DNA of 64,000 nt from an uncultured Elusimicrobia bacterium (GCA_964358485.1 CAYHPY010000004.1:10796-74795); one strand, 5' to 3'. Shown: positions 31,186 through 64,000, counted from the stretch's first letter. A program made the numbers and translations. The notes: generated by a model not told the origin, from the sequence alone.

Positions 31186-31189
31186 CTTT

Positions 31190-35726: not shown

Positions 35727-35728
35727 CG

Positions 35729-39831: not shown

Positions 39832-42537
39832 ATGCTTTCCGCTCCATTCCGGGCCGCGATTCTCCTGTTTTTCCTGTCGACCCCGCGGGTTTGGGGGGCC
39901 CCGAGCGCGCCCGTGCTTTCCACCGGAACGGCCGTGGGGACGACCTCGATCCTCTGGAACTGGACCGCCCCCTCGGACCTGGCGGCCGTCTGCCCGACGG
40001 GAACCCAGACCTACACCCTCTTCGACATGGCCACGGGCCTTCCGGTCACCTCCGTCCTGCATCCTTCCGTTTCCATCCAGGAGAACTTCGGAGGTCTCCC
40101 CAACACCCGCTACGTCCGCGGCGTGAGCGTGGCGTGCAGCTGCCTGGGCTGCGGCACCAGCCCCCTGTCCAACAGCTCGACCATCTACTCTTTGGCCGCC
40201 GCGCCCGCCAATCCGGGCGCCTCCTCGGTCTCGACGGGCACCATCGTCCTCAACTGGAGCGCCAACTCCAATCCGTCCTACACCCGCTACGAAATCACCC
40301 TCTCGACGATCAGCTACGCGCTCGGAGTCACCTCCCCGGTGGTTTACACCGACAACCTCACGCTGAGCACCAAGGCCTTCACGACGCTGAGCCCCGGGAC
40401 CACCTACTTTTTCCGGATCCGCTCCTTCAACGGCAGCGCGGCCGACGCCTCCGGGGCGCAATTTTCCGCGCTGACGAGCACCGACATTCCGACTCTGCCC
40501 GACCGGGCGGTCGCGGCGGGCACGGCCCTCTCGACCGGCTCCCTGCGCTGGACCTGGAACCTGGTCCAAGGAGCCACGGGCTACCGCGTCTATTCCAATT
40601 CGGGCGAGTTCATGGCCGACGGCCCCATCGTGGCCGTCAGCTCAGGCGGGCTGGCCGCCAGCGCCGGCTACGGGATTCAGGTCGAAGCCTACAACCGTTC
40701 CGGGGCCGGGCCCCGGGGCACGGCGTTCGCCTTCACCAAACCCCGGACCCCGATCAATTTCTCGATCGTCTCCGCCGACACCAACACCATCGGCATCTCC
40801 TGGGACGCCGACGGCAACGCCGCGGGGACCTTTTACGAAATCTACACCGCCCTCGATCCCGCGTTTCTCTCCCCGATCGCCACCAACACCGTGACCCAGA
40901 CCAGCGCCTCCCTGGGAGGGCTGTTCCCGGGAAGCACCTACTACGTGCGCCTGCGGGCGCTCAACGGCGGGCAGCTCGCCTCGGCCTTCACCGCCATCCG
41001 GTCCACGGTCACCCCCGTGACGGCCGGTCTCAGCCAATCGACGGCCCCGGCCTCGCCCTACGCCACCGTCGGCACCACCATCGGAATCTGGCATCTGGAC
41101 GCCAGCTCCGGAACGGCGGCCGTCGACGCCGGATCCTTGAGCAACGCCGGGACCATGACCTGCCAGGGGCAGGGCTGCACCTCGACGCCGACCTTCACGA
41201 CGGGCCTGACGGGAATGGGCAACGCCGCCTCATTCAGCGGAGTGCCCAACGCCATGGTCCGGATCGCCAGCCTCCCGGCCTATGACTTCACCGGGGCCAT
41301 CACGGTCAGCGCCTGGGTCCGCCCCGCCACCGCGTCCCAACCCCTGGGCGCGGCGATCGTCGCAAAAGGCACCGGGACCTACGAATCGTTCGCCCTGGAC
41401 ATCTCCTCGAGCTCCTCGGGCTCGCGCCATTTCCGCTTTTTGGTGACCGGACCCGGGGGAGCGGGCCCCGTCACCTATGTCGCCGTCGCGACCTCCGCGA
41501 TCCGGGCCGGTCAATGGGACCATGTGATCGGCGTTTACACCCCGGCGGGGACCCCGAGCGTCAAAATTTTCGTCAACGGGTCCCTTTCGAACACGAACGC
41601 GACGGGGGTGGCCGCGTCGAGGGTCGTCTCCCGGGCCCCGATCACGATCGGCAGCCGGCAGTCCGCGGCATCCTCCTACGACCTCTCGTTGACGGGCGCC
41701 GCCGACGAGATCCGGATCCTGGACCGGGCCTTGACCGATTCCGAGGCGGCCATCGAATACCGGTCCGGCTTTCCGGGGGCGGTCGCCCCACCCTCGGCCA
41801 ACGGCCGGCTGGTCCTGTCCATCCCGCCCAACGCCTTCAACGGGACGGCGGTGGTCTTCTTTTCCGCCGACCCCCTGCGCGAACCGGTCCGGTCCGCCGA
41901 CAATTTCGTCTCCCAGGGCCTGGCCATCCTGCCCACGACCCAGACCTTGATTCCCAACTCCCTGATCGAAATCGTCCCCACGATCAACGGAACTCCCTAC
42001 GCGGGGGACCTAGGATCGACGGCCACCCTCACGGTCCCCTACACCGACGCGGACAACGACGGCACGGTCGACGGCACCTCCCCGCCGATCTCCGCCTCAT
42101 CGCTGAAGCTTTACCGCCTGGAGACCACGGTCCTGCGCTGGGTGGAACTGGCGACGACGGTGGACACCGCCAACAAATTGGTCACCGGCCAAACCACCCA
42201 TTTCTCCGTCTTCGGCCTTTTCGGAGCCAGCTCTTTCGCCACCGCCCTCTCCCAGGCCCGGGTCTATCCCTTGCCCTGGAAACCGGGCTCGGGCACGCGT
42301 TTTGACGCGGCCGGACTGATTTTCGACGGCCTGGGGACCAGCGGGTCCATCCGGATCTACAACCTGGCGGGCGCCGAGGTGGCCCATTTCTTCTTCGGGG
42401 TCGCGGACCAGGGGCGCAAAACCTGGGACGGCCGCAATCGGGATGGAATTCCCGCCGCCAGCGGGCTCTATTTCGCGGTGGTCCGCGGGAGCTCCGGAAA
42501 CGACACCGCGCTTTTGAAATTCATTCTGGAACGATGA
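39832..42537 (+). CDS. large secreted surface protein: fibronectin-III repeats + LamG/ConA-like lectin domain + C-terminal T9SS-type (Por_Secre_tail-like) sorting domain
   Basis: A signal peptide is followed by repeated FN3-like units (W.W motifs) and a LamG-like block (WHLDASSG...GAADEIRILDRAL). The C-terminal ~80 aa read RVYPLPWKP...IRIYNLAGAEV...WDGRNRDGIPAASGLYFAVV. Confidence 0.7.
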   Translation: MLSAPFRAAILLFFLSTPRVWGAPSAPVLSTGTAVGTTSILWNWTAPSDLAAVCPTGTQTYTLFDMATGLPVTSVLHPSVSIQENFGGLPNTRYVRGVSVACSCLGCGTSPLSNSSTIYSLAAAPANPGASSVSTGTIVLNWSANSNPSYTRYEITLSTISYALGVTSPVVYTDNLTLSTKAFTTLSPGTTYFFRIRSFNGSAADASGAQFSALTSTDIPTLPDRAVAAGTALSTGSLRWTWNLVQGATGYRVYSNSGEFMADGPIVAVSSGGLAASAGYGIQVEAYNRSGAGPRGTAFAFTKPRTPINFSIVSADTNTIGISWDADGNAAGTFYEIYTALDPAFLSPIATNTVTQTSASLGGLFPGSTYYVRLRALNGGQLASAFTAIRSTVTPVTAGLSQSTAPASPYATVGTTIGIWHLDASSGTAAVDAGSLSNAGTMTCQGQGCTSTPTFTTGLTGMGNAASFSGVPNAMVRIASLPAYDFTGAITVSAWVRPATASQPLGAAIVAKGTGTYESFALDISSSSSGSRHFRFLVTGPGGAGPVTYVAVATSAIRAGQWDHVIGVYTPAGTPSVKIFVNGSLSNTNATGVAASRVVSRAPITIGSRQSAASSYDLSLTGAADEIRILDRALTDSEAAIEYRSGFPGAVAPPSANGRLVLSIPPNAFNGTAVVFFSADPLREPVRSADNFVSQGLAILPTTQTLIPNSLIEIVPTINGTPYAGDLGSTATLTVPYTDADNDGTVDGTSPPISASSLKLYRLETTVLRWVELATTVDTANKLVTGQTTHFSVFGLFGASSFATALSQARVYPLPWKPGSGTRFDAAGLIFDGLGTSGSIRIYNLAGAEVAHFFFGVADQGRKTWDGRNRDGIPAASGLYFAVVRGSSGNDTALLKFILER

Positions 42538-43541
42538 GACCCGAACGATCGCCGCGCCCGCGCCGGAAAACGGCCTTGCTGGCCGCGCTGCTGCTTTGGG
42601 GGCCGGGCCCGGCGGGAGCCGCCTATAAAAAAACGGACTCCGGGACCACGGTCGGGCAGTTTTTGAAGCTCGGGGCCGACGCCCGGGCCGCCGGCATGGG
42701 CCAGGCCGCCCGGGCCTTGGCCGAGGACGCCACCGCGGTCTACTGGAATCCCGCCGGGCTGGCGGGGCTCCAACGGAGGCACGCCACCGTGACCCACGCC
42801 GTCTACCTCCAGGATGTGTTTTACGACTTCATGGCCTACGCCCAGCCCGTCGAGTCGGTCCTCGGACGGGGGGTGCGCGAGCGGGAACTGCGGACCAGCC
42901 CGCTGGGCTCGATCGGGGTCGGCGTGATGTATCTCAACTCGGGACGGTTCGGAGAGCTCGACAACACCGGCGCACAGACCGGAGCGACCTTCATTCCCCA
43001 GGACCTGGCCGTGATGGCCGCGTGGGGGGGGAGCGTGACCCGGAATCTGGACCTCGGCCTCGGGGTCAAATACATCGCCTCCCGCATCCACGCGGCGGCC
43101 GCGACCGGAGCGCTCGACGCGGGAGGACGCTGGCGCTGGAAGCTGCTGGGGCGCCCGGCGGTCTTCTCCTTCAGCGTCCACCATGTCGGCGGCAATCTCC
43201 GCTACAACAATTCCGAGGAGACGCTCCCGACCACCGTCAGCGGGGGCGGAGCGTTGAAACTGACGCGGGATTGGTCGTTGGCGGCCGAATTGTTGGCCCC
43301 GCGCGACGGACGGATCTACGGGGTGGTCGGCACCGAATTCCGCTGGCGCTTCGACGGGGATTCGGCGGCGACCCTGCGGGCCGGCTACAACGGCCTTGCC
43401 AGCTCCCGGGAACTGGGGGGATTTACCGCCCTGACCGCCGGGGGAGGCTACCAGGCCAAGCGCTATGGGGTGGACTACGCCTGGACTCCGTTCGGGCGGC
43501 TGGGAGACATTCACCGCTTCACCCTCTCCTTCAGTTTTTAA
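42534..43541 (+). CDS. PorV/PorQ-like outer-membrane beta-barrel, paralog 2
   Basis: AAGMGQAARALAEDATAVYWNPAGLA ... C-terminal YAWTPFGRLGDIHRFTLSFSF. It overlaps the upstream surface-protein gene by 4 nt. Confidence 0.7.
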   Translation: MRPERSPRPRRKTALLAALLLWGPGPAGAAYKKTDSGTTVGQFLKLGADARAAGMGQAARALAEDATAVYWNPAGLAGLQRRHATVTHAVYLQDVFYDFMAYAQPVESVLGRGVRERELRTSPLGSIGVGVMYLNSGRFGELDNTGAQTGATFIPQDLAVMAAWGGSVTRNLDLGLGVKYIASRIHAAAATGALDAGGRWRWKLLGRPAVFSFSVHHVGGNLRYNNSEETLPTTVSGGGALKLTRDWSLAAELLAPRDGRIYGVVGTEFRWRFDGDSAATLRAGYNGLASSRELGGFTALTAGGGYQAKRYGVDYAWTPFGRLGDIHRFTLSFSF

Positions 43542-50911: not shown

Positions 50912-51699
50912 AACGCGCCGGAATCGACATCGGCGGAACTTGGCTCCGCTGCTCCATCCAGGATTGCGGCACCGGACGCGTGCGCCGCTCCCGCCGCCCG
51001 GCCCCGGCCCCGGGGGCATGGCGAAGGGCCGTAGCCCCCCTGTTGGGACCGGCGCCCCTGAACGCCCTGACCGTCGGCTCCACCGGCGTCTGGACCGCCG
51101 CCCAGCGACGCCGCGCCCGGGAGAGCCTCAAAGGGCTGGCCCGCGCCGTCCGGGTGCTTCCCGACCTCGAACTGGCCCACGCCGCCGCTTTCGCGGGGGG
51201 CTCAGGGGTCCTGGTCCTGGCGGGAACAGGTTCGGTCGCCCTGGCCCAAGGCCGCGACGGAAAACTCCGGCGGGCGGGAGGCTGGGGACCGCTTTTGGGC
51301 GACGAAGGCTCGGCGTTCTGGATCGGAAAACGGGCCCTGGCCGATCCCGCCCTGAGCCGGACGTTGAAGCTTCCTTCTCCCCTGGAGCTGGCCCACGGCG
51401 ATTTTCCCGTCCGCCGGGTCGCCGCCCTAGCCCGCCGGGTGCTGGAAGCCGCCCCGGGAAATCCCCGGGCCGCGCGCTTGGTCCGGGAAGCCGCCGGAAA
51501 GCTCGCGGAGCTGGCCGTCGAGACGGCCGCGGGCCTCTTCCCGGGACGCGGACCCGTGCCCGTCTCCTGGCATGGGGGCGTTATGCAAAACCCATATCTC
51601 CGCGAGCATTTCGCCCTGGCCCTCGGCCGGAGGTTCCCCCGTGCCGCCCTGCGCCCGCCCCTGATGGATCCGGATTTGGCCGGAGCCCTCCTCGTTTAA
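50908..51699 (+). CDS. BadF/BadG/BcrA/BcrD-type ATPase (N-acetylglucosamine-kinase-like)
   Basis: A GTG start overlaps the upstream stop. GIDIGGTWLR is an ASKHA phosphate-1 motif, and VLAGTGSV is also present. Confidence 0.65.
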   Translation: MKRAGIDIGGTWLRCSIQDCGTGRVRRSRRPAPAPGAWRRAVAPLLGPAPLNALTVGSTGVWTAAQRRRARESLKGLARAVRVLPDLELAHAAAFAGGSGVLVLAGTGSVALAQGRDGKLRRAGGWGPLLGDEGSAFWIGKRALADPALSRTLKLPSPLELAHGDFPVRRVAALARRVLEAAPGNPRAARLVREAAGKLAELAVETAAGLFPGRGPVPVSWHGGVMQNPYLREHFALALGRRFPRAALRPPLMDPDLAGALLV

Positions 51700-51711
51700 T
51701 ATACTGTCTTT

Positions 51712-52176
51712 GTGAGAATCGCGCTGGGCGCCGACCACGGCGGCTGGGAACTCAAGGCCCTCCTCGGCCCGGAGCTCGAGAAATGGGGGCACACCGTCCT
51801 CAACCAGGGCGTCGACGGCCCCGCCGCGGCCGATTATCCGGATTACGCCCGCAAGGTCGCCGAAGCCGTGACCCGCGGGGCTGCCGAGCGCGGCATCATG
51901 ATCTGCGGCAGCGGCGTGGGCGCCTGCGTGGCCGCCAACAAGGTCCCCGGAATCCGGGCGGGCCTTTGCCACGACACCTTCTCGGCCCGGCAAGGCGTGG
52001 AGGACGACGACGTCAACGTCCTGTGCCTGGGCGCGCGGGTCGTGGGTTCGGAGCTGGCCAAGGAGATCGTCAAGGCTTGGCTGGCCGCGCGTTTTTCGAA
52101 CGCCGAGCGGCACCTCCGGCGGCGCGACAAAGTCATCGCCATGGAGCGGGAATTCGGCGGGGCGCGGCCGCGATGA
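51712..52176 (+). CDS. rpiB: ribose-5-phosphate isomerase B
   Basis: The RpiB/LacAB signature MRIALGADHGGWELK...MICGSGVGACVAANK is present. Confidence 0.92.
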   Translation: MRIALGADHGGWELKALLGPELEKWGHTVLNQGVDGPAAADYPDYARKVAEAVTRGAAERGIMICGSGVGACVAANKVPGIRAGLCHDTFSARQGVEDDDVNVLCLGARVVGSELAKEIVKAWLAARFSNAERHLRRRDKVIAMEREFGGARPR

Positions 52177-53828
52177 AGACCGATGGTGCCCCAGGCTGGA
52201 CCGCCCTTCAAAACGCGAATTTTTCGGAACGGCTCCGCGGGAAAGATCCGTCCCTCTGGTCCGCCGAAAAGGCGGCCCAGAAATCGATCCGCAACAGCCT
52301 GGGCTGGGTGACGGTCCCCGAGGCCATGGCGGCCGGCCTGGGAACGATCCGTTCCTTCGTCTCCGAGGTTCGCTCCGCCGGCATCCACGACGCGGTCGTG
52401 CTCGGGATGGGGGGCTCGAGCCTGGCCTGCGAGGTCTTCCGCTCAGCCTTTCCCGCCGTCCCCGGAATGCCCCGCCTGCATGTCCTGGACACCATCAGCC
52501 CCGGAGCCGCGGCAAGGCTGGAGCGGGAGTTGGACCTGGCCCGGACCCTGTTCATCGTTTCCAGCAAATCCGGCTCCACCATCGAACCGAACTGCCTCCT
52601 GGCCCATTTCGAAAAGCGCGTCGAACGCCTCCCCGGGCCCTCCGGGGCGCGCTTTTGCGCCATCACCGACCCGGGAACCTCCCTGGAAAAATACGCCCGG
52701 GAACGGAATTTCCGCAAAGTCTTCCTCAATCCCGCCGACATCGGAGGGCGCTATTCCGCCCTTTCTTATTTCGGGCTGGTCCCCGCGGCCCTCATGGGAG
52801 TCGAAATCGAGCGGCTCCTGGATCACGCCCGCCGGGCGATGCGCCAACCCGAGGAAGGCCTGCGCCTGGGAGCGGCCCTCGGCGACGCGGCCCGGGCGGG
52901 ACGAGACAAGCTCAGCCTCTCCACCTCCCCGAAGCTGGCGGCTTTCGGGCTCTGGGTCGAACAGCTCGTCGCCGAATCCACCGGCAAGCAAGGCCGCGGC
53001 ATCCTGCCGGTCCTGGAGACGCCTCCCGAAAATGACCCGGGGGACCGGCTCTTCGTCCGCGTGGCGCTGGAGGCCGACGCCGACCCCGAAGGGAAAAAAC
53101 GATTGTCCGCCCTCCTGGGATCGGCCCCCGCGCCCACGCGCTTTCTCCTTTCCGACCCCCACGAGCTCGGGGCGCAATTTTTCCTTTGGGAGGCGGCGAC
53201 CGCCGCCGCGGGTTATCTGCTCGAGGTCAATCCCTTCGACCAGCCCGACGTCCAAAGCGCCAAGGACCGGACCAACGCCCTTTTGGGAAACCTGGAACGG
53301 GGAAAACTGCCCGCCGACAAGCCTTCGTTCCAAACGGCCGGCATGGCCGCGTTCGCCGATTCCGAGTTGTGCGGGAAATTGGAATCGGCGCCGGACGCTA
53401 CCTTGGACTTGGGCAAGGTCCTCCAGGCCCACTGGGGGCGCCTGAAGGCGGGGGACTACGGAGCGGTGCTTGCCTTCCTGGACCCCGATGCCGAGAATTT
53501 GGGGCTTCTGGAGCAATTGCGCGCGGCCTTGGCCCAAGCCGGGCCGGCGGCCGTCACCTTGGGCATCGGCCCCCGCTATCTGCATTCGACGGGCCAACTG
53601 CACAAAGGGGGCAACGCCCGGGGCGCGTTTTTGCTGATCAACGAGACCTCCCCCGGCCGCCTCGAGGTCCCGGGAAAATCCTTCGATTTCGGAACCCTCC
53701 AGCAGGCCCAGGCGCGGGGGGATTACGAGGCCCTTCGCTCGGCGGGGCGCCGGGTACTCCGGCTGGACCTGGACCGGACCAAGGACGGCCTGCGGGCCCT
53801 GATCAACGCGGCGGGGGGGAAAGGATGA
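52173..53828 (+). CDS. pgi: glucose-6-phosphate isomerase (PGI family)
   Basis: The start MKTDGAPGW is inferred (ATGA overlap with rpiB). The SIS/PGI motifs VVLGMGGSSL and FIVSSKSGSTIE are present. The 5' part of the 962-aa track ORF is read-through. Confidence 0.8.
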   Translation: MKTDGAPGWTALQNANFSERLRGKDPSLWSAEKAAQKSIRNSLGWVTVPEAMAAGLGTIRSFVSEVRSAGIHDAVVLGMGGSSLACEVFRSAFPAVPGMPRLHVLDTISPGAAARLERELDLARTLFIVSSKSGSTIEPNCLLAHFEKRVERLPGPSGARFCAITDPGTSLEKYARERNFRKVFLNPADIGGRYSALSYFGLVPAALMGVEIERLLDHARRAMRQPEEGLRLGAALGDAARAGRDKLSLSTSPKLAAFGLWVEQLVAESTGKQGRGILPVLETPPENDPGDRLFVRVALEADADPEGKKRLSALLGSAPAPTRFLLSDPHELGAQFFLWEAATAAAGYLLEVNPFDQPDVQSAKDRTNALLGNLERGKLPADKPSFQTAGMAAFADSELCGKLESAPDATLDLGKVLQAHWGRLKAGDYGAVLAFLDPDAENLGLLEQLRAALAQAGPAAVTLGIGPRYLHSTGQLHKGGNARGAFLLINETSPGRLEVPGKSFDFGTLQQAQARGDYEALRSAGRRVLRLDLDRTKDGLRALINAAGGKG

Positions 53829-54421
53829 AAGCGGCCGGCCGGAAATTAAGCTCGAAGGAAGTCCTCCGAAGAGCCCGCGCCCTCAAAGCCGTTCTCATGG
53901 ACGTGGACGGGGTCCTGACCAGCGGGATTCTCTATCATTTCGTCGACACCGCCGGCGGCCTGGTGGAGCTCAAGGGCATCCACGCCCAGGATTCGATCTC
54001 CCTGACCTGGCTGGCCGACGCGGGACTCAAGACGGGCTTCATCAGCGGCCGGATTTCCCAGGGGGTGGCCGAGCGGGCCAAGGCCTTGCGGGTCAGCTAC
54101 GTCTACCAGCACCGGCTCGACAAGCTGGTCGTTTTCCGGGAGATCTGCAAGGACGCCGGAATTTCCCCGGAGGAGATCCTCTACATCGGCGACGACCTGC
54201 CCGACATCCCGGTCCTCAAGGCCGCGGGCCTCGGGGTCGCGACGGCCAACGCGCGGCCCGAGACCATCGCGGCCGCGCACCTGGCGACCGCCGTGCCGGG
54301 GGGACAAGGGGCTCTTCGGGAAGTGACGGAGTTCGTCCTTCAGGCCAACGGACATTGGCCCAAGGTCCTCGCGCGCTTTGACGCCGCCGGCCTCGTTGAC
54401 TCTCCGAGGCCTTTGCGGTAG
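53825..54421 (+). CDS. kdsC: HAD-IIIA phosphatase (KdsC-like 3-deoxy-D-manno-octulosonate-8-phosphate phosphatase)
   Basis: The HAD motif LMDVDGVLT and C-terminal GDDLPDIPVL are present. An ATGA overlap with pgi. Confidence 0.75.
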   Translation: MKAAGRKLSSKEVLRRARALKAVLMDVDGVLTSGILYHFVDTAGGLVELKGIHAQDSISLTWLADAGLKTGFISGRISQGVAERAKALRVSYVYQHRLDKLVVFREICKDAGISPEEILYIGDDLPDIPVLKAAGLGVATANARPETIAAAHLATAVPGGQGALREVTEFVLQANGHWPKVLARFDAAGLVDSPRPLR

Positions 54422-54431
54422 AATCAGGCCG

Positions 54432-55082
54432 ATGTTCGACCCTTTCGGCTTGAAGAAAGACCCCGAGGAAGCGCCCGAAAAACCGGCGTCCCCGGCGCCC
54501 GCCCCCGCGGCCGAGCCGACCGGCCCCGCCCCCGGGTTCTCCACGCGGGTCCTGGCGGCGTTTCTGGTTTTCGATTCCCTTTTCGTGATCGTCTTCGGGG
54601 GCGCCTTGGCGGCGAAATTCTACGAGCACCTCAGCGCCCCGGCCCCGGTCCTCAAAGGGGCGCCTCCACCGAAAAAGGCCAAGACTCCGGAACCCCCGGC
54701 GGCCGCGCCCGACGCCCCGCCGCCGGCGCCCGTCGCGCCTTCGGCCCCCAAGCCCGAGCCTCCGGCCGCGGCGCCCAAGGCCCCCGAGCCCCCGCCGCCC
54801 GCGGCGGCCGCCGCCGCGGCCGCCGCGCCGGCCAAGACCAAAGCTTTGCCGGTGGAATTCAAGCTCAAGCAGGCCGGGGCCAAGAAAGTCGAGCTGGCCG
54901 GCGCCTTCATCGTCCGGGGGGGGAAAGCCCCCATGGCTAAAAACGGGGACGGGAGCTGGACGGTGACCTTGTACCTGATCCCCGACACCTACCGCTACAA
55001 TTTCCTCGTCGACGGCAAGAAGATCATCGACCCCCAAAACCCCAATGTCAGCCGGGGGGCGTCGGTGGTCACCATTCCCTAG
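54432..55082 (+). CDS. membrane-anchored Pro/Ala-rich protein with C-terminal AMPK-beta/CBM48-like glycogen-binding domain
   Basis: A TM helix (VLAAFLVFDSLFVIVFGGALAA) is followed by a PA-rich linker. The C-terminal PVEFKLKQAGAKKVELAGAF...DGSWTVTLYLIPDTYRYNFLVDGKKIIDPQNP is an E-set/CBM48 signature. Confidence 0.65.
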   Translation: MFDPFGLKKDPEEAPEKPASPAPAPAAEPTGPAPGFSTRVLAAFLVFDSLFVIVFGGALAAKFYEHLSAPAPVLKGAPPPKKAKTPEPPAAAPDAPPPAPVAPSAPKPEPPAAAPKAPEPPPPAAAAAAAAAPAKTKALPVEFKLKQAGAKKVELAGAFIVRGGKAPMAKNGDGSWTVTLYLIPDTYRYNFLVDGKKIIDPQNPNVSRGASVVTIP

Positions 55083-55199
55083 GCCCTCCCTAGGCCCTCC
55101 CGAAAACGCCCCTTGCCCGGTTATTGATTCTGTAACACGACCCTGGTAAGCTTATTCTCAGCGCCCACCGCTCCCGTCTCAGGGAGCTCCGGGCCATCT

Positions 55200-58100
55200 A
55201 TGCGAGGATTTCAATTTGGGCGGACCGGGCTCTTTTTGGGGCTGTTGTCCGCCCTACTCTGCGCCCAGGCCTCTAGGGCCTCCGCCGCCGTCTTCGCCGA
55301 CCGCTACTCCCACTCCTCGACCCTCCTGGCCGATGGAAACATCCTGATCGCGGGCGGTTTCGTGGGCGGCGCCGCCTCCGGCAATACGCAGCTGCGGGTC
55401 GACATGCGCGACACCTACCTCAATCTCGCCCCCATGGCCGTCGCCCGGGCCTCTCACACCGCCACCTTGCTGCCGGACGGGCGGGTCCTGGTGGCCGGCG
55501 GTTTCGACGGAGCCGTCGCCGTCACCGGCGCCGAATTTTACAACCCGGTCACCAACGCCTGGACCGCGGCGGGAGCCATGAACAACGCCCGCTACAACCA
55601 CACCGCCACCCTGCTTCGAAACGGAAACGTCCTGCTTTGCGGCGGCCAAACCCAGACCGGGGCGCTCCAAGCGAAGTGCGAAATCTTCAACATCACCACG
55701 GGCTTTCAGGCCGCCGGCAGCGTGCCGGACATGCTCACCCCCCGCACTCACCACACCGCGACCCTCGTCGAGGGCGGGCGCGTCTTCTTCACCGGGGGCT
55801 TCAGCGCCGCCGTGACCCCCAATTACATGCCCCTGTCCGAGGTCTTCGATTCCACCGCGGTGGCCACCGGGGCCAACTGCGTGGCCGGGGTGGGCTGCTT
55901 CATCCCCGCCCGCCCTTTGAACGAAGGCCGGGCCTACAATACCGCCACCTCGATGGGAAACGGGAAGGTCATGATCGCGGGCGGCTATTCCGGGCGCGAG
56001 CGCGATGGGAGCCGGGGCTACCTGGAAAGCACCGAGATCTACGACCCGATCGCCGATTCGATGATCACCGCCCCCGCCTTGAAGACCCGGATGATGGGCC
56101 ACACCGCCACCATGTGGAATGACGGGCAAATGCTCGTCTACGGAGGCCTCGGAAACATCACGACCACCTACTTGACCGGGGGCTACACCATCAACAACGG
56201 AAGCCTTCTGACCGGGCGCTTCGTTCTCCCCAGCGGCGCGGCCGGTTCCCTTTCCACGATGACCGTCCCGGCCGCGGCCACTCCTTCCGTCATCTCCGTG
56301 ACCATGGATTTCCCGCTTTCGGTCCCGGTCACCGGGAGCATCCATCGGGGACGGATTCTGTTCTCCACCCCCTCGATCACCTTCCCGGACGGGGTGGCCT
56401 ATCTGAATTGGGCGACCTCGGGAACCCTCACCAACGGCCTCCAGGCCGATCTCGCGGGAGTTCGGGTGGGGTGCACCCCCACCGGAACCTGCGGGAAAAT
56501 CACGGAAACCTTCCTTCTAAAGCAGATTACCGGGGTCTACGCGATGCGGGACCGCGCCACCTCGGTCTACCAATTCTTCGCCACCCAAGGCTCCTTCACC
56601 TTCATCGGCGGGAACATCACCCCCACCTCCCCGGCCCGGACCGTGACCGACGGCTACATCCACGGACCGGTCCAAATCCCCGTCCCCGGGGATTACATCG
56701 GAGCCAGCATTTCCAGCGGAACCTTCACCATCACCAGCGGCAGTTTCGCCAAGCTTTCGACCGGAACCGTCAGCATGATCCAGGGGGGCTACCTGGTCAT
56801 TCCCGCGGGGACGACGATCGTCGCCGATCCGACCGTTCCGGGGGGGGGCATGATCAGCCTCGCCTCGGGGGATTTCAACCGCATCATCGGCACGGTGGTG
56901 GGAAACGGCGCCGTCGAGTCGGCGTCTTCGGTCCAATGCGTTCCCGACGGGGCGACGGCCCCGGGCTGTTCGAACGTCTCCTATGTCAGCACCGTGGCGT
57001 TTTCCGCCTCGGGGAATTTGAAATTCGTGGTCGACCGGATCGACCTTTCCGGGAAGTTCCTGAACGTGGACAAATCGACGGTCATCATCGAGTCCATGGT
57101 CTTCAGCGATTTGCAAAAATTCTCCCCGAAAGACAATCAGTGGGCCGTCACCGCCGAGGGCCGCGGGGCGATTTCCCAATTCAACCACACCGCCGTTTTG
57201 TCGCCCACCTCCTCAATCAAATTCCTGGGCGGCCGCACCTGCGACAACACCGGCACCTGCGCCGTCCTGGTCGCCACCTCCGCCACGACCCTCCTGGGAA
57301 AGCTCGATACCTGGACGGCCGGCGGCAATATGGCCAACCCCCGCGGCCACCACACCGCCACGGTCCTTCCGACCGGGAAGGTCCTTGTGGCGGGGGGCAC
57401 CGACGGCCCCAACACCTGGGCCAGCGCCGAACTCTACAACCCCACGAGCCGGACTTTCGCCGCGACCGGTTCGATGAAACACGCCCGGGACCTGCACACC
57501 TCCAGCCTCCTTCCCAGCGGGCGGGTCCTGGTGGCGGGGGGTTTCTCTCCCGGAACGGCCAGCACGGGCGCCACCAACACCTCCGAAATATACTATCCCG
57601 ACTCCGCCGTCTGGATTCCCACCTCGGTCATGATCTCCTCCCGGGACAGCCACACCGCCACCGTCCTGCCCGACGGCAACGTCCTGGTGGCCGGGGGCTA
57701 CAACCGCGGGGTCTACCAGAATACCGCGGAAATTTTTTACTCCACGGCGGGGGTCTGGCGGCAGATCGCCAACATGCCGAACCGGCGGGCCAATCACACC
57801 GCCACCCTCCTGCCCAGCGGGGAGGTCCTCCTTTACGGGGGCATCAACGAGACGGGGGTGCTGGGCGCGCCGGTGTCCTACAATCCGATCACCGGCCTCT
57901 GGTCGGCCCGCACCAACACCACCTTCACGATCAACCGCACCTATCACCACACCGCCACCCTGCTTCCCAGCGGAGAGGTGCTCTTCCTGTTCGGCAACGA
58001 CGGGACGGGAACCATGGGAGTGGGTCAGCCCTATTTCCGCGAGATCTACGATCCCCTCTCCGACCTCTGGAGAACGGCCGCCGCTCAAGACATCGAGGCC

Positions 58101-61070
58101 GCCTTCAACCAGACCGCCACCCTTTTGCCCAACGGAATCGTTTTGATGACGGGCGGCGCGCACACCGCCATCGGGTCCGGCGAACTGGCCGACAACCGGG
58201 TCATCACCTACGACGTGACCGCGAGCGCATTCGTCACCGCCCAGGTCATGGGGACCAAACGGGCCTATCACACCGCCACCTTGCTGCCGGACGGCCGGGT
58301 GGCGGCCATCGGCGGCTACAACGGTTCTTCCTTCATTAATTCCAGCGAATCCATCTATTTTACCGGCGGTCCCGACAGCGCGATTTCCGCGACCGCGCCG
58401 AGCCTGCGCCAGCCCTCCATTACCACCGCGAACATGACCCTCTTCCGGGGCGGGGATTCGGTGACGATCCGGGACAAGAACCTGCTCCGCGTCCTGGAGG
58501 GCAGCGGAGGCGGAGCCACCAGCCAATCCTCCCATTCCCACCCCCGCCTCATCCTCCAAGCCCTGGATTCCTCCGGCGGCACGGGGTCCCAGGGCCAAAG
58601 CGGGTTCTTGATCGATCTGACGACCCGGATCTACCAAACCGCCAACATCCCCGGTTCGACCCCCAACAATTGGGCCTCCATCATCGGCACCGATCTGGTC
58701 AACTCCTCGATCACGGTCCGCATGCCCGAACTGTCCACGGGATTCCAATTCTCCACCGCCATGCCCAACGGCTATTACCACATGAGGTTGGTGGCCAACG
58801 CGGTCTACTCCGACAGCCTCCTGGTCCGGGTCGGCCCGCTCCTGCCCGCGGCCGTGACCCAGGCCACCGGAACCGTGCTCTCCAGCACCACCGTTTTCTG
58901 GACCTGGCCCAAGACCGCCTTGGCCGACGAAAGCGGCTACAACATCTTCTACGCCACTTCCGGGATCTTCATTTCCTCCATCCCGGTTCCCACCGGGGCC
59001 GACAGCGCCTCCTACCTTCAAACCGGCCTGGTCCCCAACACCACCGCGGCGCTCATGGTTTCCGCCTTCACCCTCACCGGGGACGGTCCGCTCACGACCT
59101 CGGCCACCACCTACACCCTTTCCACCGCCCCGGTGAGCGTCTCGTTTTCCACGGTCAACGTCAACGACCTGGTCCTTTTCTGGAACCCCAACGGCAACCT
59201 CCCGGGCACGATCTACGAGGTCTCGATGTCCTCCGACGATCCCTCCTCCAACGGCAAAAACCCGTTCACCACCTCGATCTCCACTCCGGTCTCCACCACC
59301 TTCAACTTCATTAAAACGACCGCCACCATCGACAACCTCACGGAAAACACCACCTATTACTTCCGGGTCCGGGCCTGCCGGGGCCACACCATCCTCTCCT
59401 GCGACCCGATCAACCTTTCGAATTTCAGCTACATCTCCTCGGCCACCACCCGCTCCCAGGTCCAAGGCCTCACCGGGACCCCGTGCGCCACGCCCAACGG
59501 CACCACCTGCATCAACTGGACCTGGTCCCCCATCGGCCCCGCCCTGAAGTACCGGGTCTACAACGCCACGACCGGCGTCCGCCTGGACAACGACAATCTC
59601 TCCCAGGCGTCCTTCAGCGACGTCAGCCTGGGGACCAACTGCCCCCGCGCGGTCCGGGTCAGCGCCGTGACCCCCGCCGGGGAAGGACCGCTCTCGCTCT
59701 CCACCACCCGCTACACCTTGGCCGCCATGCCGGGATTGGTCTCGCCGACCTTGACCACCTTGACCTCGGGGACCATCACGGGGCGGTGGGACACCAACGG
59801 CAATCCCCCGAGCGGCAACTCCTGCAACCCCGCGGGAACCACCTACCTGCTCTCCGTCTCCTCGACCTTCTTCGTCACGAGCACGACCAATTCCGTCGTC
59901 CAAACCGGCCTGGGCCTCATGAGCCTGGGCATGGGGAATCTGCCTCCCGCGGAGATCTACGGCGCGACCGTGTCGGCCGTCAACGGCGACGGGCTCGCCT
60001 CGGAATTCTCACGGGACCTGGGTTCCACGGCCACCTGGGCGGTGGAGCCCACGGGCCTGGCCATCACCGGCGCCAACCTGGATTCCGTATCCCTGGCTTG
60101 GTTGTCCAACGGCAACGCCTCCTCGGCCACCTATCAGGTCACCTACTCCACCGACGATCTCGCCGGCAACGGCCTCAATCCGTTCGCCCGCCACATCGCC
60201 ACGGACGCGGCGGCCAATTTCGCCGCCGGGTTCACCGGGCTTTCGGCGACGGTCAGCGGCCTGGACACCAACAAGAAGTACACCTTTCGGGTGCAGGCCC
60301 GCAACACCAGCGGGATCACGACGAATTTCTCCAACCAGGTGGCCACCACCACCCCGAGCGGCGGCGCGGTGACGGGTTCCATCGCCGGAACCCTGAAAGC
60401 CTCCGCGGACTCCGCCGTCACCGGCTCGGTGGGCTCGCCGACGGTGCGGACCGTTTCCCTGAACGCCCCCGCCGGGGCCTTCTCTTCCGACGTGACGGTG
60501 ACCCTTTCGTCCCACGCCTTCAACACCAGCCTTTGCGGCAACACCACCGGGGCCGGAGTTTCCATCTCGGTCAATCCGCCGCTGCAGCCCGTCAAACCCC
60601 TCGTGTTCACCATGACCTACACCACCGCCCCCGTCAACGAGCTCGGGGACATGCCGGCCAACCGGGTGACCCTCCTGCGCTGGGATCCGGTCGCCGCCAA
60701 ATGTGTTCCGATGCCGACGAGCGTCGATCCCCTGCAGGGGCTCATCACGGCGACTCTCAATCACCTTTCGATCTTCGTCCTGGGCCAGGTGGTGCCGTCC
60801 GGGTCGGTGGACACCGCCCGGGTCTTCCCCAATCCCTTCTTCCCGTCCTCCGACAGCTACATCACCTTCGAATTGCTCCCCGCCTACGCCCAGGTCCGGA
60901 TTTGGACCCTCCGGGGAGAGCTTGTGTTCGAGCGCACGGCCGGCGCGACCGGCACCCTGACCTGGAACGGAACCAACCGCTGGGGCAGGGCGGTCGCCAG
61001 CGGGGTGTATTTGGCCACCATCCAGCTGGGCAACGAGAAAAAAATTCTAAAGCTGGTGGTCCTGCGATGA
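55200..61070 (+). CDS. giant (1956-aa) secreted Kelch-repeat beta-propeller / FN3 surface protein with C-terminal T9SS-type sorting domain
   Basis: A signal peptide is followed by more than 12 Kelch-like repeats (HTATLLPDGRVLVAGG pattern) and multiple FN3 units. The C-terminus reads RVFPNPFFP...VRIWTLRGELVF...WNGTNRWGRAVASGVYLATI. Confidence 0.75.
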   Translation: MRGFQFGRTGLFLGLLSALLCAQASRASAAVFADRYSHSSTLLADGNILIAGGFVGGAASGNTQLRVDMRDTYLNLAPMAVARASHTATLLPDGRVLVAGGFDGAVAVTGAEFYNPVTNAWTAAGAMNNARYNHTATLLRNGNVLLCGGQTQTGALQAKCEIFNITTGFQAAGSVPDMLTPRTHHTATLVEGGRVFFTGGFSAAVTPNYMPLSEVFDSTAVATGANCVAGVGCFIPARPLNEGRAYNTATSMGNGKVMIAGGYSGRERDGSRGYLESTEIYDPIADSMITAPALKTRMMGHTATMWNDGQMLVYGGLGNITTTYLTGGYTINNGSLLTGRFVLPSGAAGSLSTMTVPAAATPSVISVTMDFPLSVPVTGSIHRGRILFSTPSITFPDGVAYLNWATSGTLTNGLQADLAGVRVGCTPTGTCGKITETFLLKQITGVYAMRDRATSVYQFFATQGSFTFIGGNITPTSPARTVTDGYIHGPVQIPVPGDYIGASISSGTFTITSGSFAKLSTGTVSMIQGGYLVIPAGTTIVADPTVPGGGMISLASGDFNRIIGTVVGNGAVESASSVQCVPDGATAPGCSNVSYVSTVAFSASGNLKFVVDRIDLSGKFLNVDKSTVIIESMVFSDLQKFSPKDNQWAVTAEGRGAISQFNHTAVLSPTSSIKFLGGRTCDNTGTCAVLVATSATTLLGKLDTWTAGGNMANPRGHHTATVLPTGKVLVAGGTDGPNTWASAELYNPTSRTFAATGSMKHARDLHTSSLLPSGRVLVAGGFSPGTASTGATNTSEIYYPDSAVWIPTSVMISSRDSHTATVLPDGNVLVAGGYNRGVYQNTAEIFYSTAGVWRQIANMPNRRANHTATLLPSGEVLLYGGINETGVLGAPVSYNPITGLWSARTNTTFTINRTYHHTATLLPSGEVLFLFGNDGTGTMGVGQPYFREIYDPLSDLWRTAAAQDIEAAFNQTATLLPNGIVLMTGGAHTAIGSGELADNRVITYDVTASAFVTAQVMGTKRAYHTATLLPDGRVAAIGGYNGSSFINSSESIYFTGGPDSAISATAPSLRQPSITTANMTLFRGGDSVTIRDKNLLRVLEGSGGGATSQSSHSHPRLILQALDSSGGTGSQGQSGFLIDLTTRIYQTANIPGSTPNNWASIIGTDLVNSSITVRMPELSTGFQFSTAMPNGYYHMRLVANAVYSDSLLVRVGPLLPAAVTQATGTVLSSTTVFWTWPKTALADESGYNIFYATSGIFISSIPVPTGADSASYLQTGLVPNTTAALMVSAFTLTGDGPLTTSATTYTLSTAPVSVSFSTVNVNDLVLFWNPNGNLPGTIYEVSMSSDDPSSNGKNPFTTSISTPVSTTFNFIKTTATIDNLTENTTYYFRVRACRGHTILSCDPINLSNFSYISSATTRSQVQGLTGTPCATPNGTTCINWTWSPIGPALKYRVYNATTGVRLDNDNLSQASFSDVSLGTNCPRAVRVSAVTPAGEGPLSLSTTRYTLAAMPGLVSPTLTTLTSGTITGRWDTNGNPPSGNSCNPAGTTYLLSVSSTFFVTSTTNSVVQTGLGLMSLGMGNLPPAEIYGATVSAVNGDGLASEFSRDLGSTATWAVEPTGLAITGANLDSVSLAWLSNGNASSATYQVTYSTDDLAGNGLNPFARHIATDAAANFAAGFTGLSATVSGLDTNKKYTFRVQARNTSGITTNFSNQVATTTPSGGAVTGSIAGTLKASADSAVTGSVGSPTVRTVSLNAPAGAFSSDVTVTLSSHAFNTSLCGNTTGAGVSISVNPPLQPVKPLVFTMTYTTAPVNELGDMPANRVTLLRWDPVAAKCVPMPTSVDPLQGLITATLNHLSIFVLGQVVPSGSVDTARVFPNPFFPSSDSYITFELLPAYAQVRIWTLRGELVFERTAGATGTLTWNGTNRWGRAVASGVYLATIQLGNEKKILKLVVLR

Positions 61071-62074
61071 GGATCTCCCGCCTCGGCCCGCTCGCGGCTC
61101 TGCTCCTGGCCCTGGGAAGCTCGGCCGCCTTCGCCCGCCGACCCCCGGAATTCTCCCGGGATTCGGTGGGCACCACCGGGTCGGAGTTTTTGACCATGGA
61201 CGTCGGGGCCCGCGGCATCGCCATGGGGGGGGCTTACTCGGCCCTGACCGACGACTCCAACTCCCTTTATTGGAACCCCGCGGGTCTGTCGCGGATTCCG
61301 AGGATGTCGGCGTCCTTCACCTATTCCCATTACCTGGCCGATATCTCCTACCAGTCCGGCTCGGTCGCCCGGCGCTTCACCGATTACGGGGTGCTTGGGG
61401 TGGGCTGGCGCTACATGGACATCGGGGAACTCGATCGCGTGGACATTTCCGGCGTCAAAAAAGGCATCTTCCATCCCCGGCACTATGTGGGTGAAGTCGG
61501 CTGGGGCCAGGCCGTCCTCGATCAATCCGACAGCGAAATGGACCTCACGGTCGGGGGGACCATCCGCTGGATCCACTCCGACCTGCTTCTGCACGCCGAC
61601 GGCTTCGGGGGGGACCTGGGCATGCAGTCCCGGTTCTACAAGGGCTCGACGATCTACGATTTCGGCGCCGTCCTCCAAAACCTGGGGCGCGGGCAGAATT
61701 TCAAAAGCGAACGGGACACTCTCCCCTTCCGCATGAAGGTCGGGGCCGCGGTTTACCCGGTCAAGAACCTGGCCCTGTCGGTCGAGGGATTCTTCCCGAT
61801 CTACTCCTATCCCCACGCCGGGGTCGGAGTCGAATACGGGGTCGAACTGCAAAAGGGAATTCGAGTGGCCCTCCGGTCCGGCTTCAACAGCGCGACCATC
61901 GAGAGCCTCGGCGCGCTTTCCACCATGAACATGGGCCTGGGGCTCAAGGTCTCCGATCTCAGCTTCGATTACGGCTTCTCCCCCATGGGAGTCCTTGGGA
62001 CCAACGTCGTCCACCGACTGACCTTCAGCTACAATCTTCCGTCAAAATCCTCCAAACGATATAGGGAGAGATGA
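61067..62074 (+). CDS. PorV/PorQ-like outer-membrane beta-barrel, paralog 3
   Basis: MRISRLGPLAALLLALGSSAAFA is the signal peptide. It carries MDVGARGIAMGGAYSALTDDSNSLYWNPAGLS and an ATGA overlap with the giant protein gene. The start may be at 61067 or 61070 (±3 nt). Confidence 0.7.
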   Translation: MRISRLGPLAALLLALGSSAAFARRPPEFSRDSVGTTGSEFLTMDVGARGIAMGGAYSALTDDSNSLYWNPAGLSRIPRMSASFTYSHYLADISYQSGSVARRFTDYGVLGVGWRYMDIGELDRVDISGVKKGIFHPRHYVGEVGWGQAVLDQSDSEMDLTVGGTIRWIHSDLLLHADGFGGDLGMQSRFYKGSTIYDFGAVLQNLGRGQNFKSERDTLPFRMKVGAAVYPVKNLALSVEGFFPIYSYPHAGVGVEYGVELQKGIRVALRSGFNSATIESLGALSTMNMGLGLKVSDLSFDYGFSPMGVLGTNVVHRLTFSYNLPSKSSKRYRER

Positions 62075-63636
62075 TGCCCCCCGACCCCCCCGAACCGCCC
62101 TTTCCGCCCGGAGGTCCCCTTCCTCCTCCCCGGGGGCCCCGGCCCGTCCCGCCCGCTCCGCCCCCTCCGGAACTCCTGCGGCCCGCCTCCCCGCACGTCC
62201 CGCTGACGCCCATGATGGATTTTCTCCAGCGCCGGCTGGAATCCCTCGAAACGGAACTTCAGGTGGAGCGGGAACGCTCCCAGTCCGCCCATAACCTTCT
62301 CACGCAGCAGGACAGCATGCGCGAGCAGGTCGAGTCCCAGCTCAAGGCCATGGCCGACCAGCTTCGGCGGGAGAAGTCCGAGCGGGACAACGAAGAAACC
62401 CGTTCCCATTCCCGGGGGCGCATCGACGCGCTGGAAAAGCGCCTGGACGAGATGCATCAGACCTGGGCGGGGCTCCTCAAGGAGGCCGTAGCCGGGGGCG
62501 GACGCCCCGAGGAATGGTCCAAGGTCAAGGACGAAATGGCCCGGATCAAGGACTCCCTGGCGCTGGTTCCCCAGGCGGTGGGAGAACTGCGCGATTGGGC
62601 CGCCCGCGCGCCGGCCGACGAGCTTCGGGTGGAGGAGCGCCTGGGCGCCATGGTCACCCGCCTGGCGGGTTCCCTGCATGACCAGATGGCGGAGTGGGAC
62701 CGCCGCCGCGGGATCGAGCTCGAGCACCAGAAGGAAGGCCTGCGCGCCTTGGAGCGGGAGCGAGCCGCCCTGCAGGAGGCCTGGGAGGGGGAATCCCGGA
62801 GCATGCGCAACCGGGACGCCCAGGAACGCCTCCTCCAGGAAAAACGCCTGGATGAGAAAGTCCGGGAGCTCGATAAGAGCCTGGCGGCGATCAAGGAAGG
62901 GCAGTCCTCGATCACGAAGGATTCGCAGGAGGTCCGCGCCCTGCTGGGCCGCGCCGTCGACGCCCTCACCGCCGAGCCCAAGGCGCGGGACCAGGTCATC
63001 GCCGACCTCGAGGAAGAAAATCGCGCCGTGGTCAAGTCCCTCCGGGAGCGGGGGGAGTCCATGCGCCGCTTCGCCGAGGAGCGCCGCCAGATCGAGGCCA
63101 GCATGGGCGCCAGCCTCATCGAGCTGACGGGCGCCGTGGAGGCCGAACGGGAGAAAACTCGGGAGGCCGCGCGCGCGGCCTCCGGCTGGAAATCCGAAAT
63201 CGCCGCCCTCCAGGACCGTCTGAGCGCCGCCGAAAGGGCCCTCCACGACAAAGACGCCCTCCTCGACGCCGCCCGGCAGGAGCGGGACTCCCTGCTGCGC
63301 TCGGTGGTGGAGCACGCCTCCCAGCTCCGGTCTCATGTGGACCAGAATTTGAAGGACCAACAGGCCTCCGACGCGCGCCTGCGGCAGTTCCAAGCCCAAG
63401 CCGCGGCCGAGAAACAGAAAGCCTCGGAGGAAGCCGCCTTCGCCTCAGACCTCAAGGCCAAGCTCGGCGCCCTGTCCCAGGAAGTGGCCCGCCTGGTGAT
63501 GGAACGAGACGCCTCCGGGGGACGCCAAAACGCTTGGGAGGGGGAACGGGCCCAGCTCATGGAGACTTTGCGCAAAAAGGAAGAAATGTTGGGCCTTCTC
63601 TCCTCCACCTTCCAAAACCTGATAAAGAAACCCTGA
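62071..63636 (+). CDS. Pro-rich N-terminus / long coiled-coil protein (hypothetical)
   Basis: An ATGA overlap with the barrel gene. ~450 aa of heptad-repeat Glu/Arg/Leu-rich sequence. Confidence 0.55.
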   Translation: MMPPDPPEPPFPPGGPLPPPRGPRPVPPAPPPPELLRPASPHVPLTPMMDFLQRRLESLETELQVERERSQSAHNLLTQQDSMREQVESQLKAMADQLRREKSERDNEETRSHSRGRIDALEKRLDEMHQTWAGLLKEAVAGGGRPEEWSKVKDEMARIKDSLALVPQAVGELRDWAARAPADELRVEERLGAMVTRLAGSLHDQMAEWDRRRGIELEHQKEGLRALERERAALQEAWEGESRSMRNRDAQERLLQEKRLDEKVRELDKSLAAIKEGQSSITKDSQEVRALLGRAVDALTAEPKARDQVIADLEEENRAVVKSLRERGESMRRFAEERRQIEASMGASLIELTGAVEAEREKTREAARAASGWKSEIAALQDRLSAAERALHDKDALLDAARQERDSLLRSVVEHASQLRSHVDQNLKDQQASDARLRQFQAQAAAEKQKASEEAAFASDLKAKLGALSQEVARLVMERDASGGRQNAWEGERAQLMETLRKKEEMLGLLSSTFQNLIKKP

Positions 63637-63653
63637 TTTTGTAGAATCGCCCC

Positions 63654-64000
63654 ATGAAGGCGATCGTCATTCGAAAACACGGCGGCCCGGAGGCGTTGGA
63701 GGCCGCGGAGCTTGCGAACCCCGAACCCGGTCTCGGGGAAGTCCTCCTCAGGGTCAGGGCTTGCGCCCTCAACCACCTCGACATCTGGGTCCGCGACGGC
63801 ATTCCGGCCTATAAAATCCCCCTGCCCCACATCCTCGGCTGCGACGCCGCCGGGGAGGTCGCGGCCCTCGGCCCGGGCGTTTCTGGCTTGAAGAAGGGCC
63901 AACGCGTGGCCGTGGCCCCGGGCCGGTCCTGCGGCGTCTGCGACGCCTGCCTGGAAGGCGCCGACAACCGCTGTCCCCGGTATGGGATTATCGGAGCCCA
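63654..64000 (+). CDS. zinc-binding alcohol dehydrogenase / quinone oxidoreductase (MDR superfamily), 5' part
   Basis: MKAIVIRKHGGPEALE...LLRVRACALNHLDIWVRDG...C..C..C.....C is a structural-zinc Cys cluster. It runs off the window end. Confidence 0.85.
   Translation, partial: MKAIVIRKHGGPEALEAAELANPEPGLGEVLLRVRACALNHLDIWVRDGIPAYKIPLPHILGCDAAGEVAALGPGVSGLKKGQRVAVAPGRSCGVCDACLEGADNRCPRYGIIGA

Follow-up and report, generated by a model that had tools for sequence, protein, structure and literature searches.

We analysed a 64,000-nt stretch of DNA from an uncultured Elusimicrobia bacterium (GCA_964358485.1, CAYHPY010000004.1:10796-74795), referred to below as the window, and focus here on a locus of three genes that encode a giant protein with Kelch and fibronectin type III (FN3) repeats, an outer-membrane barrel and a coiled-coil protein. 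The original prediction for this locus had described three reading frames linked by ATGA start/stop overlaps, and the read-out of the open reading frames (ORFs) confirmed their positions, their lengths and both overlaps. All three genes are located on the forward strand. The first (55200-61070) encodes the giant, a putatively secreted protein of 1956 amino acids (aa); the second (61067-62074) encodes a 14-stranded outer-membrane barrel of the PorV/PorQ family, 335 aa long and with a signal peptide; the third (62071-63636) encodes a coiled-coil protein of 521 aa with a Pro-rich N-terminus, for which composition, homologs and hydropathy predict a cytoplasmic location. The ATGA overlap of giant and barrel lies at 61067 (CTGCGATGAGG) and that of barrel and coiled-coil gene at 62071 (GAGAGATGATGCC). 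An Rfam scan of the region 54000-64000 detected no RNA family. The G+C content of the window is about 66%, its proteins match uncultured Elusimicrobia, and the homologs of giant, barrel and coiled-coil protein all bear Elusimicrobia names; contigs with sequence identical to the barrel protein are present in Hainich groundwater assemblies. Judged from its sequence, the source organism is an Elusimicrobium.

The ORF of the giant is continuous and, as had been claimed, consistent in its codon usage, with a G+C content at third codon positions (GC3) of 0.87 along the entire length. Orthologous giants of 1570-2264 aa align with it from end to end (for example with 67% identity over 98% of the query, or 46% over 99%), and thus there is no sign of a frameshift. 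GC3 and full-length alignments together therefore identify the giant as a real and intact gene. Orthologs from Elusimicrobia metagenome-assembled genomes are named 'kelch repeat-containing' or 'fibronectin type III domain-containing protein'.

The giant starts with a putative Sec-type signal peptide (MRGFQFGRTGLFLGLLSALLCAQASRASA, 55200-55286, on the forward strand like all parts of this protein), which is the hydrophobic maximum of the N-terminal part and in which n, h and c regions were recognised by eye. Next come a first Kelch propeller with six blades (aa ~30-330, 55287-56189), an all-beta insert with long strands (aa ~331-650, 56190-57149) and a second Kelch propeller with about seven to eight blades (aa ~655-1060, 57162-58379). 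Both propellers were delimited by Pfam matches, the blade motif, an AlphaFold2 model and a structure search. The insert was defined from the AlphaFold2 model, in which it is modelled confidently except for the loops 345-349 and 572-597, and it is not matched by any Pfam family. Matches to fn3 and Pur_ac_phosph_N mark a stalk of about five FN3-like modules (aa ~1290-1750, 59067-60449), a number that is approximate since it was taken from repeated W-containing starts in the sequence. The stalk is followed by a further beta domain and finally by a C-terminal domain (CTD) of about 80 residues.

Kelch families exceed their Pfam cut-offs in the giant (Kelch_4 with 148.7 bits, Kelch_6 with 103.2 and Kelch_1 with 83), and fn3 reaches 86.8 bits against a cut-off of 25, with the FN3-like Pur_ac_phosph_N at 42 bits. 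The blade motif HTATLLPDGxVLVAGG is present in six copies in aa 38-316, and about seven to eight more are found in aa 661-1039. An AlphaFold2 model of aa 1-1150, built from 33 sequences, contains two propellers (pLDDT 82, pTM 0.75) and superposes on the Kelch domains of Keap1/KLHL proteins with TM scores of 0.78-0.80. The motif copies and the two-propeller model thus show that the predicted number of more than 12 blades was correct, the domain scores bear out the FN3 units, and the structure prediction proposed for the propeller yielded two of them. The giant also contains cysteines that are conserved in at least 90% of the aligned orthologs, and these would fit an extracytoplasmic location.

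Some of the matches to the propellers could be taken to mean that the giant is an enzyme, namely either a galactose oxidase/GlxA-type radical copper oxidase or a NanM-type mutarotase. Partial matches were obtained to Glyoxal_oxid_N (53.6 bits), GlxA (91.6 bits) and NanM, and JGI names some of the orthologs 'N-acetylneuraminic acid mutarotase'. However, the GlxA match (NF052501) extends over four Kelch stretches and is far below the cut-off of 800 bits, NanM scores 30 against 416, and the matches are confined to the Kelch blades. The folds matched are those of Keap1/KLHL, and the 50 best structural matches of the giant model include no galactose oxidase and no PorZ. We consider an enzymatic function of this kind very improbable, and the assignments to galactose oxidase/GlxA and to NanM were rejected on the low scores and the Keap1-type fold matches.

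The CTD (aa 1875-1956, 60822-61067, forward strand) was assigned as a C-terminal sorting/anchor domain of the PorZ type by comparison with TIGR04183, the PorZ model and the structure 5m11. TIGR04183, the model for type A sorting domains that belong to type IX secretion systems (T9SS), scores 24.9 bits in the full giant and 29.8 bits in the tail alone (cut-off 23), and since the match lies at the extreme C-terminus the predicted T9SS-type tail is indeed present. A set of tails was compiled from the last 110 residues of the orthologous giants of 41 related loci together with the tail from the window; TIGR04183 is matched by 42/42 of them, and all 42 match the CTD end of the PorZ model even more strongly (best E-value 7.6e-19). 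A profile of these tails aligns with residues 656-758 of Porphyromonas gingivalis PorZ (5m11, E=1.7e-10) up to the last residue, and both the CTD of the giant and PorZ terminate in AVIR; the second match of the profile, a translocon-bound cargo CTD (8glk_D), is weak (E=0.005). The CTD is the best-conserved part of the giant, with a mean column identity of 65%, compared to 57% for the barrel and 38% for the whole giant. The giant was rejected as an ortholog of PorZ itself, since the PorZ model NF052228 reaches only 51-58 bits against a cut-off of 260 and covers only model positions 668-756, which are the CTD, and since the propellers are of the Kelch type. In P. gingivalis PorZ and PorU retain their CTDs uncleaved, and the barrel PorQ serves as the anchor of PorZ (PMC10947112, PMC8545088). 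The CTD of the giant appears closer to this uncleaved PorZ type, which argues against cleavage without settling the question.

The barrel scores 145.5 bits with the PorV/PorQ family model NF033709 (cut-off 90), and its orthologs are named 'PorV/PorQ family protein' by NCBI. With a profile of 43 barrel orthologs, PorV of Flavobacterium johnsoniae (6h3i_F, E=5.7e-16) was the sole sequence match in the PDB. The AlphaFold2 model of the barrel (pLDDT 81.8) consists of 14 long strands of the FadL type and an N-terminal helical plug segment, and a Foldseek search with this model placed PorV (8gl6_F and 6h3i_F) at the top with TM scores of 0.68-0.69, followed by FadL and TodX. Family score, fold and junction sequence thus agree with the earlier description of a PorV-like barrel that overlaps the giant at ATGA. 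Within the family the barrel seems to lean to PorQ (97.6 bits) over PorV (66.9 bits); the PorV2 model gives 55.7 bits against a cut-off of 325.

To compare related loci, one genome per species was scanned, which yielded 47 Elusimicrobia loci encoding the coiled-coil protein. The neighbourhood is collinear in this lineage, with the order tal-pgi, KdsC-like phosphatase, membrane-anchored CBM48-like protein, giant and barrel where present, coiled-coil protein and alcohol dehydrogenase. Giant and barrel precede the coiled-coil gene in 43 of the 47 loci and are both missing in the other four (L010, L026, L036 and L041). In three of these four the coiled-coil gene directly follows the CBM48-like gene, and in L041 three unrelated genes lie in between. 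No orphan CTD or barrel was found in the flanks of the 47 loci. In a neighbour-joining tree of the tal-pgi protein, L041 is the outgroup and L010, L026 and L036 are located in three different clades. This pattern suggests that giant and barrel were lost or gained repeatedly as one unit and thus represent a two-gene indel module. Where both are present, they are tightly linked: the 4-nt overlap between the stop of the giant and the start of the barrel is kept in 39 of 41 species. For the coiled-coil gene, most of the 43 loci offer a possible start codon at -4 to +20 nt relative to the barrel stop. In the only complete genome of the clade (CP096137.1, 2460502-2482085; L005 and L034) giant, barrel and several neighbours are each split into several called genes, which are probably assembly frameshift errors and not pseudogenes. 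In the window, a gene for a zinc-type alcohol dehydrogenase (63645-63998, forward strand) starts 8 nt after the coiled-coil stop and runs past the window end; it is found comparably near to the coiled-coil stop in many related loci and may be part of the same transcript.

We regard it as fairly likely that giant and barrel form a module of the type IX sorting kind that consists of a cargo and its cognate anchor, in which the giant would be a surface protein held non-covalently by its own barrel. The anchor reading is drawn by analogy with systems that share the CTD and barrel families; since neither equivalog test is passed, it does not amount to a claim that giant and barrel are orthologs of PorZ and PorQ. 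The giant would be exported by Sec via its signal peptide and reach the cell surface, where the two Kelch propellers could serve as distal binding heads on the FN3 stalk and may bind ligands. The CTD, presumably uncleaved as in PorZ, would be bound non-covalently by the PorQ/PorV-like barrel encoded just downstream, so that the giant would stay attached to the cell. Translational coupling by the 4-nt overlap would supply giant and barrel together.

Alternatively, the giant might be a T9SS cargo of the ordinary kind, and the genome would encode a complete type IX system (SprA/Sov, PorKLMN, PorU) elsewhere; the CTD would then be a cleaved export signal and the barrel a PorV-like shuttle. This would be in line with the CTD scoring above the cut-off of the type A model, with its weak match to the translocon-bound cargo CTD 8glk_D, and with the best solved structural match of the barrel, which is PorV from translocon complexes. 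However, none of the T9SS core genes (SprA/Sov, PorK/L/M/N, PorU) was found within the 64-kb window. Literature searches on T9SS, PorV or SprA in Elusimicrobia returned nothing relevant, and two reviews describe the system as confined to Bacteroidota (PMC7463736, PMC10202324). In addition, the CTD is nearer to the uncleaved PorZ type, and a general shuttle needs no barrel gene translationally coupled to each cargo. An ordinary T9SS cargo therefore appears unlikely. Should a standard T9SS be present, the locus would amount to no more than a cargo of unusual size and good conservation that has an anchor of its own.

A second alternative is a translocon-independent display by two partners, in which the insertion of the barrel, together with the beta-barrel assembly machinery (BAM), would carry or thread the cargo to the surface without a SprA-like channel. 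The strict one-to-one pairing with its translational coupling, the gain or loss of giant and barrel as a unit and the presence of three barrel paralogs in 64 kb, each with its own partner, are what such a route would lead one to expect. Nevertheless, it is not obvious how a 200-kDa protein with folded propellers could pass a 14-stranded barrel with an N-terminal plug, and we know of no member of the FadL/PorV family that translocates protein, which makes this route improbable.

Several points also weigh against the reading of the giant as a cargo held by its own anchor. The Pfam models for CTDs stay below their threshold of 27 bits in the giant (Por_Secre_tail, PF18962, 15.3; CHU_C 18.7; FlgD_ig 15.5). 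The barrel fails the equivalog cut-offs of both the PorQ model (NF033711, 220 bits) and the PorV model (NF033710, 250 bits), and because of this the assignment to PorQ over PorV goes no further than a lean. Barrels of this family are not always partnered with a CTD, since one of the two other barrel cassettes in the window (cassette 1, described below) has a partner without such a domain. The whole neighbourhood is collinear, including tal-pgi, KdsC-like, dehydrogenase, PMT_2, RDD and MFS genes, and synteny alone thus says little on function; likewise, the tight packing of the three genes is no proof of a shared function, because the alcohol dehydrogenase gene is packed equally tightly after the coiled-coil gene. 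Lastly, the tal-pgi tree was calculated by neighbour joining from one protein and carries no support values.

The coiled-coil protein has a Pro-rich N-terminus and is coiled-coil-like by composition in its remainder. More than 120 full-length homologs were detected, which are mostly 470-560 aa long and, the three closest relatives aside, mostly 33-44% identical to the window protein; all named homologs are from Elusimicrobia. Characteristic motifs of the family are VPPAPPPPELLRP..HVPLTPMMDF in the Pro-rich N-terminal part and KKDEMISMLSSTFQNMLKK in the C-terminal part, and both are specific to this Elusimicrobia family. Searches of Pfam, NCBIfam and PDB returned only chance-level coiled-coil matches (ATG16, SMC and the HR1 region of the coronavirus spike). 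JGI names homologs 'chromosome segregation ATPase', and an SMC identity was rejected, as TIGR02168 scores 15.5 bits against 567 and matches only the coiled coil, with no other domain. The nearest analogy is with crescentin, FilP and Ccrp, which are coiled-coil-rich cytoskeletal proteins of bacteria. Like them, the protein is long, mostly helical and predicted to be soluble and cytoplasmic. The likeness is one of composition only: homology is not detectable, and the Pro-rich N-terminal and the C-terminal motifs are confined to the Elusimicrobia family.

No hydrophobic segment is present in the coiled-coil protein (over 19 residues its hydropathy peaks at 0.67, and none of 120 homologs exceeds 1.42), and its reading frame opens just two codons before the ATG. 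The protein therefore has no signal peptide and no membrane anchor, and without these it would be cytoplasmic by default. The original prediction had suggested a periplasmic or envelope-spanning tether, which would work together with giant and barrel. The putative co-transcription with overlapping or tightly spaced junctions might be seen as pointing to such a role, as might the Pro-rich N-terminus and the long helical body, which superficially resemble TolA/TonB. However, neither the window protein nor any of the 120 homologs has a signal peptide or a membrane helix, and there is no room for an upstream extension of the frame. Furthermore, the gene is kept under the same promoter motif in the 4 of 47 species that do not have giant and barrel, and the proposed check of the paralog cassettes showed that it is absent from both other barrel cassettes of the window. 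We thus give a tether of this kind hardly any credence. Instead, the coiled-coil protein is predicted to be cytoplasmic, co-expressed with giant and barrel and independent of them.

Upstream of the giant a conserved promoter-like element is located at 55124-55160 (forward strand), which was recognised by its occurrence once per locus and by the spacing of its hexamers. In the window it consists of TTGATT, a 17-nt spacer containing TGTAACA, and TAAGCT. The consensus of the motif family, TTGATTTYGTAACA-N7-GTTACACT, can be read as a -35 box TTGATT, a 17-nt spacer and a -10 box TACACT, and includes the inverted half-sites GTAAC-N8-GTTAC. From the hexamer spacing we infer that the motif is a promoter. 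In the window, and likewise in 33 loci bearing giant and barrel, a single copy per locus is found upstream of the giant; among the cassette-bearing loci, three more have a degenerate motif, and seven contigs end short of its position. In all four cassette-less loci, including the outgroup L041, the motif is located directly upstream of the coiled-coil gene, and altogether 37 of the 47 related loci have a single copy (for example L010, 9986-10014, and L041, 9872-9900). L041 retains the motif before the coiled-coil gene despite different neighbouring genes, and in L010 the CBM48-like stop is followed by a hairpin, the motif and the coiled-coil ATG, about 37 nt past the last base of the motif. 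The hairpin of L010 (9945-9971) is a perfect one, GAATTCCCC-N9-GGGGAATTC, and looks like a terminator separating the CBM48-like gene from the coiled-coil transcription unit.

In cassette-bearing loci the motif is not repeated before the coiled-coil gene. The motif positions with and without the cassette therefore place giant and barrel between the coiled-coil gene and the putative promoter that belongs to it, which supports a three-gene operon and at the same time a coiled-coil gene that does not depend on giant and barrel. The predicted operon is supported by the 4-nt overlaps in the window, by the possible coiled-coil start that most of the 43 loci have near the end of the barrel gene and by the single upstream motif. 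It had been noted that independent transcription of the coiled-coil gene and its lack of conservation with the cassette would speak against this organisation; the motif is not repeated before the gene and the pair is adjacent to it in 43 of 47 loci, yet the gene is kept without the pair in the other four. A scan for consensus intrinsic terminators between the three genes gave only chance-level matches inside coding sequence. A single conserved promoter, 40-80 nt upstream of the giant, would drive the joint transcription of giant, barrel and coiled-coil gene. In this arrangement, the gene for the soluble, presumably cytoplasmic coiled-coil protein conserved in this Elusimicrobia lineage would be the constant gene under the promoter, and giant and barrel would be the two-gene module that is lost or gained between the two.

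The left half-site GTAACA of the motif is located in the spacer, a part that need not be conserved in a sigma-70 promoter, and pairs with GTTAC as an inverted repeat. Because of this inverted repeat the motif looks as if it includes an operator for a dimeric regulator that overlaps the promoter. The copy in the window itself has the palindrome GTAAC-N8-GTTAC in a degenerate form. Two pattern searches found no further copies in the window, one of the patterns being mis-spaced so that it missed the copy at 55124 itself.

Two other barrel cassettes are present in the window. Cassette 2 (39832-43541, forward strand) comprises a 901-aa FN3/LamG cargo with a CTD (39832-42537) and a 335-aa PorV/PorQ barrel (42534-43541), joined by an ATGA overlap. 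The cargo contains FN3, Laminin_G_3 and a CTD with sub-threshold matches to FlgD_ig and the PorZ model; the barrel scores 136.9 bits with NF033709 and is 27% identical to the barrel at 61067-62074. The gene following cassette 2 encodes an epimerase and not a coiled-coil protein. Cassette 1 (9978-12055, reverse strand) comprises a 365-aa membrane-anchored Pro/Ala-rich protein (10958-12055) and a 327-aa PorV/PorQ barrel (9978-10961; NF033709, 122.7 bits), with a TTGA overlap; the 365-aa protein has a short coiled-coil segment and no CTD. A hidden Markov model (HMM) scan of all window ORFs found exactly two CTD proteins and three barrels, with a barrel directly after each CTD protein.

The gene upstream of the giant (54432-55082, forward strand) encodes a protein that combines a single membrane helix and a Pro/Ala-rich linker with an AMPK1_CBM/CBM48-like domain at the C-terminus (AMPK1_CBM 35.7 bits against 26.8), and all related loci that extend to this position have its counterpart. 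With a short cytoplasmic tail, an N-terminal membrane helix and a long Pro/Ala-rich linker it has a TonB/TolA-like topology, by which it would suit the role of a periplasm-spanning tether better than the coiled-coil protein does. Another gene (13413-15821, forward strand), about 1.4 kb away from cassette 1 and on the strand opposite to it, encodes an 802-aa protein that has CARDB/NPCBM-associated Ig-like domains and ends in a caspase-like domain (Peptidase_C14). The peptidase clan of this domain also includes PorU; no PorU model matched the 802-aa protein. The window further contains an oligopeptide uptake cluster (25553-36667, forward strand) with an OPT-family transporter, three tandem Opp-type substrate-binding proteins, a permease and an ATPase, as well as a fused MFS/spermidine synthase (18920-20365, reverse strand) and a bifunctional transaldolase/glucose-6-phosphate isomerase (50940-53828).

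The closest known arrangement to giant and barrel is PorZ-PorQ of the P. gingivalis attachment complex, which likewise combines two beta-propellers, a C-terminal beta-sandwich CTD and a barrel of the PorV/PorQ family (PMC8545088, PMC10947112). The CTD of the giant aligns to that of PorZ through the last residue, and the barrel leans to PorQ. In contrast, the propellers of PorZ are of the PorZ/BT4663 type and those of the giant of the Kelch type. The giant is also 2.5 times longer than PorZ and has an FN3 stalk, its gene is adjacent to and overlaps the barrel gene, the host is an Elusimicrobium, and there is no known context of anionic lipopolysaccharide (A-LPS) or PorU. PorU-PorV and the PorV shuttle of F. 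johnsoniae (6h3i, 8gl6) resemble the locus in that a 14-stranded barrel of the FadL type binds a CTD protein, which for giant and barrel we propose by analogy. PorV has many different cargos, in contrast to the coupling of a single barrel gene to a single cargo gene seen here, and the barrel is below the PorV equivalog cut-off. Genes for type B cargos and their PorP/SprF partners are usually neighbours, as for example SprB-SprF. As described for PG1035-PorP in Bacteroidota (PMC9143113), the combination of a type B CTD with a PorP/SprF-like barrel shares the logic of an own outer-membrane partner for each cargo. These systems differ from the present one in both components: the CTD is type B there and type A/PorZ-like here, and the barrel is PorP/SprF there and PorV/PorQ here.

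The components of the locus belong to families that were already annotated; what is new is the strictly coupled pair of a PorZ-type CTD protein and a PorQ-like barrel as a two-gene indel module in Elusimicrobia. The locus also poses the question of the origin of the T9SS, that is, whether or not these genomes contain the translocon. Elusimicrobia may be without a SprA-type translocon, and the coupled pair may be a self-contained, mobile surface-display module, possibly the ancestral unit of the attachment complex of the Bacteroidota T9SS; we consider this decidedly unlikely, but if it were true, the giant would use a not-yet-known route across the outer membrane. How PorV/PorQ barrels recognise and hold a CTD is still being worked out in Bacteroidota. 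The locus represents a stripped-down natural version of this problem, with one cargo and one barrel strictly coupled in at least 41 species of another phylum, and as CTD and barrel are the most conserved parts, it offers clean pairs of co-varying sequences for mapping the CTD-barrel interface. In addition, the pair is cleanly present or absent at a site flanked by a conserved promoter and a downstream gene that is conserved as well, and thus exemplifies how a two-gene module moves into or out of an existing transcription unit.

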